NCBI GenBank assembly: GCA_018238625.1
Contig: JABCSY010000035.1
Location: 1 to 36,491 of the forward strand
Direction of reading: 5' to 3'
DNA length: 36,491 nt
DNA from: Promethearchaeota archaeon
GTDB lineage: Archaea > Asgardarchaeota > Lokiarchaeia > Sigyniarchaeales > SOKP01
Shown piece after piece: positions 28,739 through 29,590 of this stretch. How positions within the stretch are numbered: position 1 is the stretch's first letter; each line of letters begins with the position of its first letter. The position numbers were made by a program, and so were the translations under genes. The notes under the pieces are model-generated. The model did not search any database. It had not been told where the DNA came from and saw only the letters and a list, made by a program, of their open reading frames with translations.

Positions 28739-29590
28739 GTGAGAAAATTGGAAGAAAATGAAAAGCCTTTAACATCCGAAGAAATTGAAACCCAAAAGAA
28801 GATTGTTGATAAGTTATATAAAAAAGAAAAGGAAGAAAGAGAACAGTACTTAAAAAGTTTCGAAGTAGAACGGAAAGCCGCTTTTGAAGAGAGTAAAGAA
28901 ATGATTTCTGCCTTGATATCCGAGAAAAGTTTCATGAGAGAAAAACAAAGAGAACGAGATTTAGAAAGAATGGAACTAAAACCTGACATTGAACAAACTG
29001 GTGAAGCAATCGAAAAAACCATCGGGGAAAAAGCATTTATGAGAGAAAAACAAAGAGAAGCAGATTTTAAAAGGACAGACTTAAAACCCGACTTTAAAGG
29101 TATTAGCGAAGTAATAAGTAAGATAGTCGATGATAAAGCGTTTTTAATTGAAAAGAAAAGAGAATCTGATATCCAACGATTAAAAATAAAACCTGATATG
29201 GAAAGCACAAGGGAAGCAATTAGTAAAAGTATTAATGAAAAAGCATTTATGATTGAAAAAAAGAAAGAGAGCGATACTCGTCGGTTAGAAATAAAACCAG
29301 ACATCGAACAAGCTGGTGGAGCAATCGAAAAAGCCATCGGAGAAAAAGCGTTTAGAATTGAAAAACAAAAAGAATTAGATCAAAAAAGAATGAATATTAA
29401 ACCTAACTTTGAGCAATCTAGCGAAGCAATCGAAAAAATCATTGAAGAAAAAGCATTTGTTAGAGAAAAACAAAGAGAACGAGATTTAGAAAGAATGGAG
29501 ATTAAACCCGATATAAAAGGTATTAGCTCTAGAATAGAAAGCGAAATTGAAAAAATCGAACAAAAGAAAAAGGATGAAGATCTTACTTAA
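28739..29590 (+). CDS. Highly charged tandem-repeat protein (35-aa repeats)
   Basis: 283 aa; six 35-aa units with consensus EKAFxxEKxRExDxxRxxIKPDxExxxEAIxKxIx. Start GTG 28739 or TTG 28748. Confidence 0.85.
   Translation: MRKLEENEKPLTSEEIETQKKIVDKLYKKEKEEREQYLKSFEVERKAAFEESKEMISALISEKSFMREKQRERDLERMELKPDIEQTGEAIEKTIGEKAFMREKQREADFKRTDLKPDFKGISEVISKIVDDKAFLIEKKRESDIQRLKIKPDMESTREAISKSINEKAFMIEKKKESDTRRLEIKPDIEQAGGAIEKAIGEKAFRIEKQKELDQKRMNIKPNFEQSSEAIEKIIEEKAFVREKQRERDLERMEIKPDIKGISSRIESEIEKIEQKKKDEDLT
28922..29551 (+). repeat. Six tandem 105-bp coding repeats
   Basis: Units start at 28922, 29027, 29132, 29237, 29342 and 29447. Units 1 and 6 share AGAGAAAAACAAAGAGAACGAGATTTAGAAAGAATGGA. Confidence 0.92.

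Follow-up and report, generated by a model that had tools for sequence, protein, structure and literature searches.

A contig of 36,491 nucleotides from a Promethearchaeota archaeon (JABCSY010000035.1), analyzed over its whole length and referred to below as the window, encodes on its forward strand a tandem-repeat protein at positions 28748..29590. We conclude that this gene is real and that it represents an undescribed, lineage-specific family of Asgard archaea, in which a conserved head is followed by an array of units of 35 amino acids (aa). The explanation that we prefer, although we give it slightly less than an even chance, is that the repeat protein is a cytoplasmic, highly charged, segmented α-helical rod. 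An initial annotation of the locus had proposed an extended actin-binding protein resembling nebulin, either homologous or convergent; the likeness to nebulin that we find is a design analogy, not ancestry. The gene model, the repeats and their conservation, the predicted structure and the distribution of the family are described below, followed by the explanations that compete for its function.

The longest open reading frame (ORF) at this position, 28739..29590 on the + strand, opens with GTG at 28739, encodes 283 aa and ends with a stop codon at 29588-29590. The conserved start codon is likely TTG 28748 rather than GTG 28739, which would give a 280-aa repeat protein, because orthologous loci carry either a stop codon immediately 5' of the conserved L-E-E-N-E-K-P-L (L019 and L021) or an ATG start at this sequence (L022 and L023). 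Together with the ORF itself and these orthologous start sites, codon-position conservation supports the coding sequence 28748..29590 (+). Among the repeats, codon position 3 is the least conserved (0.53, compared with 0.66 and 0.74 for positions 1 and 2), and thus the + frame is coding and is under purifying selection. A 200-aa antisense ORF at 28735-29337 (-) was rejected as a shadow frame of the periodic sequence, since codon-position conservation favors the + frame. Contigs from the RNA library X19 cover positions 28700-29379 at 90-99% identity, with none before 28700 or after 29379; this cover is a weak hint at expression of the repeat gene, DNA carry-over being possible.

The 35-aa periodicity of the window protein is far above chance. 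Its lag-35 residue identity is 105, whereas the highest value at any lag between 5 and 119 never exceeded 48 in 2000 shuffles (mean of the maxima 36.3). At the DNA level, Tandem Repeats Finder reports the segment 28934-29508 with period 105, 5.5 copies, 65% matches and a score of 360. In the protein, the motif K-P-[DN] recurs at aa 81, 116, 151, 186, 221 and 256, and the motif K-[AS]-F at aa 63, 98, 133, 168, 203 and 238, with one more occurrence at aa 39; successive repeats are always 35 aa apart.

The coding sequence can be divided into a head, six units and a tail, all on the + strand. The conserved non-repeat head (62 aa, 28748..28933) could be aligned in all 15 complete orthologues and is predicted to form one long helix that continues into the first unit. 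It closes with a degenerate proto-repeat, R0 (28829..28933, aa 31-65), which ends I-S-E-K-S-F, contains no K-P-D and is just 14-34% identical to R1-R6; the end of the tiny homologues described below (…H-I/V-x-E-K-A) aligns at R0. The six units share 34-69% protein identity with each other and correspond to units 1, 2, 3, 4/7, 11 and 12 of the 12-unit orthologue in locus L009. R1 (28934..29038) and R2 (29039..29143) are each 94% identical to units 1 and 2 of that protein, respectively, and R3 (29144..29248) is 97% identical to unit 3. R4 (29249..29353) matches unit 4 at 77% and unit 7 at 80% identity, and its end at 29353 is a suspected site of assembly collapse. R5 (29354..29458) is 89% identical to unit 11 and is orthologous to unit 11 of the 12-unit relatives, while R6 (29459..29563), which is 94% identical to unit 12, is a terminal variant without the closing EKAF. 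This terminal unit is kept in 15/15 orthologues. The charged C-terminal tail K-K-K-D-E-D-L-T (29564..29587) aligns with the tails of the orthologues, and a further conserved C-terminal extension is found in the orthologues L022 and L023 and in the relatives P0004 and P0006.

The six gap-free 35-aa repeats listed in the initial annotation are thereby borne out by the ORF, by their spacing and by the periodicity, except that the sixth unit lacks its closing EKAF and runs into the tail. The seventh module of 38 aa that had been placed in front of them does not stand, R0 being part of the conserved non-repeat head, and neither does the resemblance to the nebulin motif SDxxYK: VDKLYK occurs once, in the head, and the motif found in each repeat is x-E-K-A-F.

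Relatives of the window protein were collected from several collections. A word-index search of 5.8 billion proteins returned two of them (P0001 and P0002), and an exhaustive phmmer search of 1.84 billion representatives gave 48 matches at E<=1e-3, most of them fragments. Five of these 48 are true TPR proteins that were matched via one short common stretch, and P0015 was discarded as an unrelated low-complexity repeat. Among the GTDB species genomes we identified 17 loci, nearly all of them titled Promethearchaeota or Promethearchaeia. The odd titles are Hermod-, Thor- and Hodarchaeota (three loci) and one Nanopelagicaceae bacterium; on the common gene order, rather than a tree, all 17 loci including these four are read as one lineage. 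The locus titled Candidatus Nanopelagicaceae bacterium (L015) carries a complete Lokiarchaeial block, including a repeat gene of 12 units, and is most likely a mis-binned Asgard contig.

The 15 complete orthologues contain arrays of 6, 9, 10, 11 or 12 units, the 6-unit form being that of the window and the others having 9-12. All 163 units of these proteins are exactly 35 aa long, with no insertion or deletion in any of them. The most conserved positions of the unit are I26 (160 of 163 units), P17 (156), E7 (148), K4 (147), K33 (146), F35 (142), K16 (140) and A34 (136), and near-invariance also extends to E3, R6, D9, R12, L/I15, D18, I/V30 and E32. In the motif x-E-K-A-F the aromatic position is Phe in 142/163 units and Tyr in 5. 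Units are more similar to their positional counterparts in other species than to units at other positions (diagonal 0.67 and off-diagonal 0.49 in the comparison of L009 with L012), and therefore the residues common to the units are selected, not merely inherited from recent copies. Neighboring units that are 100% identical occur in L008 and L019 and show that duplication is recent and ongoing; copy number would still be changing via unequal crossing-over. The unit similarity matrices reveal 3-unit duplications and no period of 7. Eleven of the 15 orthologues are basic (isoelectric point, pI, 8.4-9.5), while the version in the window has a pI of 5.6; the window protein contains no Trp and the orthologues contain 0-1. 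The survey of homologues and of repeat-number variation suggested in the initial annotation thus gave 15 orthologues with 6-12 units, and matches in 109/134 further genomes of the family of the window.

The number of units in the window is itself in doubt, because of the unit matching with L009 and the branching of contigs at 29353. The genes adjoining the repeat gene in L009 are 92-96% identical in protein to those of the window. We compared public contigs from four runs with the window at 28500-29800. In runs X1, X3 and X5, which belong to three studies, a 108-nucleotide contig covering 29246-29353 (R4) stops exactly at 29353, and each of these runs also contains a contig that links 29353 back to ~28938-28943 via 4-9 extra letters. 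These joins read as R4 followed by what would be the start of a further repeat. When translated, the loose contig ends at 28983, 29218 and 29345 give repeat types that correspond to L009 units 5/8, 9 and 10. The R4|R5 junction of the window is present with zero differences in a 168-nucleotide contig of X3, the left side of which covers only 30 nucleotides. Assemblies of metagenome-assembled genomes (MAGs) break in this gene elsewhere, as L010 and L018, which belong to one MAG, divide it between two contigs, and the contig of L024 ends inside the array. The six units of the window thus probably result from a longer array that collapsed in assembly; the same pattern would less probably stem from a true short allele or from contigs of co-occurring relatives. 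Depth bumps of 3-9 times over parts of the array were not taken as a measure of copy number, as they sum all contigs, including those of other organisms.

The reading of the array as a rod draws on structure prediction. AlphaFold returned an all-helical model for the window protein as a single sequence, with a mean predicted local distance difference test score (pLDDT) of 78.6 and a predicted template modeling score (pTM) of 0.23; the head was predicted as one uninterrupted helix of 67 residues (13-79; block pLDDT 88-95). From an 88-row alignment of five-unit segments (pLDDT 84.2, pTM 0.24), helices were predicted at residues 4-33, 39-69, 74-104, 109-139 and 144-174, i.e. 30-31 residues each, interrupted just at the 4-5 residues around K-P-D, and the model of the single sequence agrees with this pattern. 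No hairpin within a unit and no confident helix-helix packing were predicted. The extended layout expected in the initial annotation is thus also that of the models, a string of helices in place of a compact solenoid. A Foldseek comparison of both models with the PDB gave 0 matches at E<=10.

The composition of the protein fits exposed helices. Charged residues make up 138/280 positions (~49%). On the helical wheel, the first half of each helix has I19, I26, I30 and A34 aligned in a single stripe, with F35 lying ~100 degrees off this aliphatic stripe; the other half is entirely charged and contains the conserved i/i+3 pairs E3-R6, K4-E7 and D9-R12. The Fourier power of hydrophobicity is 12.9 at 35 residues, 5.8 at 5 and 5.0 at 7, compared with 0.17 at 3.5 residues. 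The mean hydrophobic moment (0.246) equals that of shuffled sequences (0.239 +/- 0.025), and a membrane-binding amphipathic helix of the apolipoprotein or perilipin type was dropped on this ground.

Searches against known families returned no relative of known function. At E<=1, Pfam hmmscan of the window protein gave only Entericidin and Flagellin_N and no Nebulin (PF00880); at E<=10 it gave 3 families, none of them Nebulin. For the 15 orthologues at E<=10, neither Nebulin nor TPR is among the best 25 of 45 families. The matches to Entericidin (11/15 orthologues, best E 5e-9) and UBA_SIK3 (9/15) were rejected as spurious, arising from a short motif summed over units. No relative of the repeat protein was found in NCBIfam or PHROGs. 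A PDB sequence search produced only a 12-residue chance match to an FGGY kinase (E 2.3), the whole-protein search being empty, and the best score in the ESM Atlas, 0.76, is below the meaningful level. A resemblance of the E-K-A-F/K-Q-K stretch to TMA7, a small eukaryotic protein associated with translation, was dropped, as no such Pfam family was matched at E<=10 by the head and two tiny homologues. In a literature search on nebulin-like or tandem-repeat actin binders in Asgard archaea, which included Lokiactin side-binding, no such protein and no biochemical data on its binding to F-actin were found among the matches listed.

The family has a narrow taxonomic range. Of 400 genomes of the phylum, 114 are matched by the window protein, among them the genome of the window. 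Outside this genome, matches are present in 109/134 genomes of its GTDB family and in 1/14 and 2/4 genomes of two sister families. The one further match (family f18, 1/6 genomes) is a TPR protein (kinase) and was rejected as an orthologue; apart from it, none of the 400 genomes beyond these three families gave a match. The repeat gene was not found in three large Asgard families (0/31, 0/22 and 0/19 genomes). Judged from these matches, only one GTDB family has the long arrays and only two sister families have the shorter relatives, all within one order of Lokiarchaeia. Lokiactin is distributed phylum-wide, in 54/61 of the genomes sampled and in 27/27 of those of good quality, and homologues of the repeat protein were found only in actin-bearing Asgard genomes.

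The origin of the array can be partly followed in the neighboring lineages. Relatives from the sister families carry the same head. In the f22 relative, it is accompanied by six K-[AGST]-[FY] motifs that define five 37-aa intervals with almost no Pro, and in the f23 relative by two units and then another tail. With a profile built from the head and two units, ORFs of 71-82 aa were found in families f7 (5/5 genomes) and f18 (5/6). In these short frames the match covers the head alone (profile positions 2-61), and they end …I/V-x-E-K-A; a profile match in f31 was discarded because it contains five stop codons. No Pfam family was obtained for the tiny homologues. The tiny Asgard proteins of ~65 aa (L077-L080) are thus homologous to the head, including its closing …I-x-E-K-A, the seed of the repeat, but unlike the window protein they have no repeat array. 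The array therefore appears, as these comparisons partly show, to descend from an older Asgard protein of ~65 aa whose C-terminal helix was copied in tandem.

The repeat gene occupies a conserved position, in the order DUF362 - 250-aa gene - repeat gene - 167-aa gene (opposite strand) - 158-aa gene - zinc ribbon - 132-aa gene - radical SAM, and this order is common to the related loci, including the odd-titled ones, wherever contigs extend far enough. Within the block (26381-33863 in the window; L008-L023 and L067-L070), a 68-aa zinc ribbon, a 132-aa membrane-like protein and a radical SAM/HMPTM zinc ribbon protein are conserved across the GTDB family. The convergent 167-aa neighbor (29622-30125, -) has no Pfam or NCBIfam match. 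Its nearest named Atlas cluster is a Roadblock/LAMTOR2 domain-containing protein (score 0.89, 182 shared features), in which 22% of members carry PF19036 (Fuz_longin_1), and this neighbor is probably a roadblock/longin-like Asgard protein.

The preferred explanation, a segmented rod, combines these observations as follows. Each 35-aa unit is predicted to form one helix of 31 residues that starts from the Asp after the conserved Lys-Pro, the helices being broken only at K-P-D. Without confident packing among them, we read the array as an extended chain of rods of ~5 nm each. The acid/base pairs E3-R6, K4-E7, D9-R12 and E24-K28-E32 would stabilize helices that are exposed to the solvent, and the stripe I19-I26-I30-A34 together with F35 would present one identical patch per unit, about every 5 nm. 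The protein could thus serve as a multivalent scaffold or spacer, each unit presenting the same site, for a partner that is itself repetitive or for a single ligand in many copies.

The repeat protein can be compared with single α-helix domains of the ER/K type. Both have a high content of Glu, Lys and Arg, long exposed predicted helices that make no tertiary contacts, and i/i+3 and i/i+4 pairs. ER/K helices, such as those of myosins and caldesmon, are typically of low complexity and without a fixed repeat. In contrast, the window protein is divided by Pro into strict 31-residue segments, carries an aliphatic stripe and a Phe in each of them, and exceeds its shuffles in ion pairs by only ~1.8 standard deviations.

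Several observations weigh against the preferred explanation, or at least against parts of it. The ion-pair excess is modest: 79 pairs of opposite charge at i/i+3 and i/i+4, compared with 67.0 +/- 6.5 in shuffles (z about 1.8), and by itself it does not establish a single α-helix. AlphaFold tends to over-predict helix in sequences rich in Lys and Glu, and disorder of the free protein is therefore conceivable. Any elongated model would be expected to have a low pTM, and the predicted helices might still pack. The fixed unit length is not general, as more distant relatives (G165, P0011 and P0026) have 37-aa units without Pro, and the metagenomic relatives P0004, P0040 and P0041 have units of 32-38 aa; the exact 35-aa unit would be a trait of one clade, not of the whole family. 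As for function, we infer one site per unit from conservation alone. The gene is also dispensable in two genera of the family of the window, where it was found in 0/2 and 0/7 genomes; at four gene-less loci of these genera the two flanking genes are adjacent, 46-149 nucleotides apart. Finally, the adjoining genes give no functional clue. The upstream 250-aa gene was rejected as an operon partner because its occurrence does not follow that of the repeat gene. Both genera without the repeat gene have this upstream gene, and no copy of it was found in 13 genomes from the genus of the window, 9 of them with a repeat gene.

Lokiactin filaments are the most attractive candidate partner for such a rod, and we treat this possibility as an explanation of its own. 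The protein would be a convergent, nebulin-like side binder that lays one helix along each protomer of the long-pitch strand and stabilizes, bundles or measures filaments in the cell body or in protrusions. We regard this as unlikely. A more specific form of it seems rather improbable, namely that the protein is an independently evolved counterpart of nebulin of recent Lokiarchaeial origin, which spends one helix per protomer (~5.6 nm) and sets or stabilizes filament segments by its 9-12 units (~50-65 nm).

The dimensions would suit a Lokiactin binder. In the available part of the structural description, the rise and twist of the Lokiactin filament are given as 27.9 Å and -167.7 degrees, corresponding to 55.8 Å per protomer along the strand (PMC9834061). 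Thirty-five residues would span 52.5 Å if fully helical and up to ~60 Å with an extended 4-residue linker, and the 37-aa Pro-less units, as a continuous helix, would span 55.5 Å. However, a length of ~5.5 nm follows from any helical 35-37-mer and is thus non-specific, and the relatives vary in unit length from 32 to 38 aa. Charge is ambiguous in the same manner: the basic pI of 11 of the orthologues would suit the Lokiactin of this genome (pI 5.18), but the acidic version in the window does not follow this pattern. The absence of a predicted compact fold would also be compatible with filament binding.

The genomic evidence for this explanation is divided as well. The genome of the window contains six actin-family genes. 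On the other hand, the repeat gene is missing from most Lokiactin-bearing Asgard families and from two genera of its own, and neither the window nor any of the 17 related loci places it near genes for actin, profilin or gelsolin. The available portions of two papers name only profilins and gelsolins as Asgard actin regulators (PMC13716822, PMC9834061).

The parallels in layout between the repeat protein and nebulin were also used to assess this explanation. The accessible part of a study of nebulin describes units of mostly 35 aa with Pro near position 5 and Tyr 17 residues further on, at 22, and simple repeats of 31-38 aa with S-D-x-x-Y-K and an invariant Tyr (bioRxiv 10.1101/2021.10.06.463400). 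As far as this description goes, both proteins have units of ~35 aa with one helix each that starts near Pro, and an aromatic residue 18 residues later here and 17 in nebulin, so that the distance given in the initial annotation as within about one residue holds. Both also have conserved charged positions, an elongated rather than globular shape, a variable number of units and a length suiting the ~5.6-nm repeat of the actin strand. A unit length of 31-38 aa, mostly 35, with a helical unit was found in all 163 units (35 aa, predicted 31-residue helix). The two differ in many other respects. The repeats carry x-E-K-A-F in place of S-D-x-x-Y-K, with G/D/E/A/S/N at the position equivalent to Ser, and there is no mid-helix kink or loop but just the 4-residue break at K-P-D. 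The repeat protein is without a 7-unit super-repeat, troponin-binding motif, SH3 domain or capping-protein ends; with no Trp, it lacks the WLKGIGW motif; and its arrays have 6-12 units, compared with about 160-200 in nebulin. The repeat family is confined to one order of Lokiarchaeia, and no sequence relationship to nebulin was detected among the Pfam matches listed.

An alternative to any external filament is that the protein assembles with itself. The head helix and the stripes of the units would pair in register to form a segmented coiled-coil dimer, a fiber or a lattice, a possibility that we consider equally unlikely. In its favor, the predicted head helix (13-79) is uninterrupted over 67 residues at a pLDDT of around 95, and the conserved aliphatic stripe of each unit must be buried by something. 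As 35 = 5 x 7, a heptad register could persist across units, and parallel in-register pairing would match the stripes, which intramolecular antiparallel packing would not. Against it, there is almost no 3.5-residue harmonic (0.17), the hydrophobic moment is that of shuffles, a Pro recurs every 35 residues, and half of each helix is without hydrophobic positions. Tropomyosin, which lines actin as a continuous coiled coil, is similarly all-helical, elongated and periodic at the scale of the actin protomer; unlike it, the window protein lacks the 3.5-residue hydrophobic harmonic and the family has Pro every 35 residues (156/163 units). A plain coiled coil, which the initial annotation had listed among outcomes that would speak against filament binding, is thus not what we find, there being no heptad signal and a Pro in each unit.

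The protein could also do without a partner. It would then be a hydrophilin-type or otherwise partner-less charged protein, acting as a solubility, crowding or stress shield or as an entropic spacer, or an orphan, with repeat number drifting neutrally; we find this rather improbable. The high content of charge (~49%), the lack of any homologue of known function among those found, the restriction to one lineage, the loss from two genera with intact flanks, and copy numbers from 6 to 12 with recent identical duplicates all agree with it. However, the 163 units contain no insertions or deletions, ~15/35 positions are nearly invariant, including an exposed Phe and an Ile present in 160/163, units keep positional orthology across species, and codon position 3 diverges most. 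Thus the constraints are more than a mere charged spacer needs.

A diverged helical-hairpin solenoid of the TPR type (or of the PPR or TALE type) is very improbable and can be considered largely refuted. The suggestion comes from phmmer matches (E 1e-15 to 3e-4) to the TPR proteins P0019, P0039, P0042, P0045 and P0047 via …E-I-K-P-D-F/I…, from a period of 35 aa close to the 34 aa of TPR, and from the metagenomic relative P0001, which enters a TPR domain from its second unit. The short stretch …L/I-E-I/L-K-P-D-F/I… at the unit boundary is what the two families share, and phmmer matches sum it over units. In contrast to a TPR, the repeat protein has one predicted helix per unit rather than a hairpin, its model shows no solenoid (pTM 0.24), and the core positions of the would-be helix B are the invariant charged residues D9 and R12. 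No TPR family is among the Pfam matches listed, Foldseek gave no PDB match, and hhalign of the repeat alignment with the TPR protein P0019 resulted in a probability of 0.28% (E 0.21). The compact solenoid mentioned in the initial annotation as a refuting outcome is therefore not what is predicted. P0001 itself lies on a contig of 822 nucleotides and may be a chimera joined at the common short motif. Both P0001 (199 aa) and P0002 (272 aa, on a contig of 1488 nucleotides) consist of the head and two units followed by unrelated C-termini; P0001 passes into the TPR domain exactly at K-P-D-F and P0002 into sequence of a different composition, so that they are either real fusions or chimeric assemblies.

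True homology to the repeats of nebulin, nebulette or LASP, the other half of the initial proposal, has a negligible chance: it is suggested only by unit length and Pro-to-aromatic spacing, no PF00880 match is listed, the repeats are without SDxxYK, a 7-unit super-repeat, the WLKGIGW motif or an SH3 domain, the narrow range of the family compared with phylum-wide Lokiactin rules out a vertical link to eukaryotic nebulin, and an array that expanded late and within one clade from a tiny protein cannot lie in the ancestry of eukaryotes.

Other genes of the window were noted in passing. At its start lies an 886-aa leucine-rich-repeat protein (101-2761, -). It is followed by an eIF2-gamma/EF-Tu-type GTPase (3371-4930, +; GTP_EFTU, domain 2 and eIF2_C) with an N-terminal helix-hairpin-helix domain (HHH_5) at residues 4-55, which is an unusual pairing, and by a 571-aa ORF (5291-7006, -) without a Pfam or NCBIfam match. 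The region 9379-12874 holds together CitG (triphosphoribosyl-dephospho-CoA synthase family), a 427-aa homologue of the RuBisCO large chain and an IF-2B-family protein; the latter two presumably point to the archaeal AMP/ribose-1,5-bisphosphate pathway. Elsewhere in the genome of the window, two of three close Lokiactin paralogues (L002 on contig C16 and L003 on contig C47; 83-85% identical to the main one) are each followed by a same-strand gene of 413-429 aa, the N-terminus of which looks profilin-like by eye.

The present analysis contributes four points: the six-unit form is probably an artefact of assembly, the gene is cleanly missing between intact neighbors in two genera, hhalign rejects a link to TPR, and the origin from a tiny protein has been checked independently. 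For annotation, the case is a warning that short-read MAG assemblies break or collapse this gene. Asgard archaea build an actin cytoskeleton, and the unit length, helicity and per-unit conservation of the repeat protein are as expected of something that lines a periodic polymer, which makes it a concrete candidate for a partner of Lokiactin. The family is also a clean case of the birth of a long modular protein, in which a helix appears to have been copied to as many as 12 units, with its length frozen and the copy number still moving.

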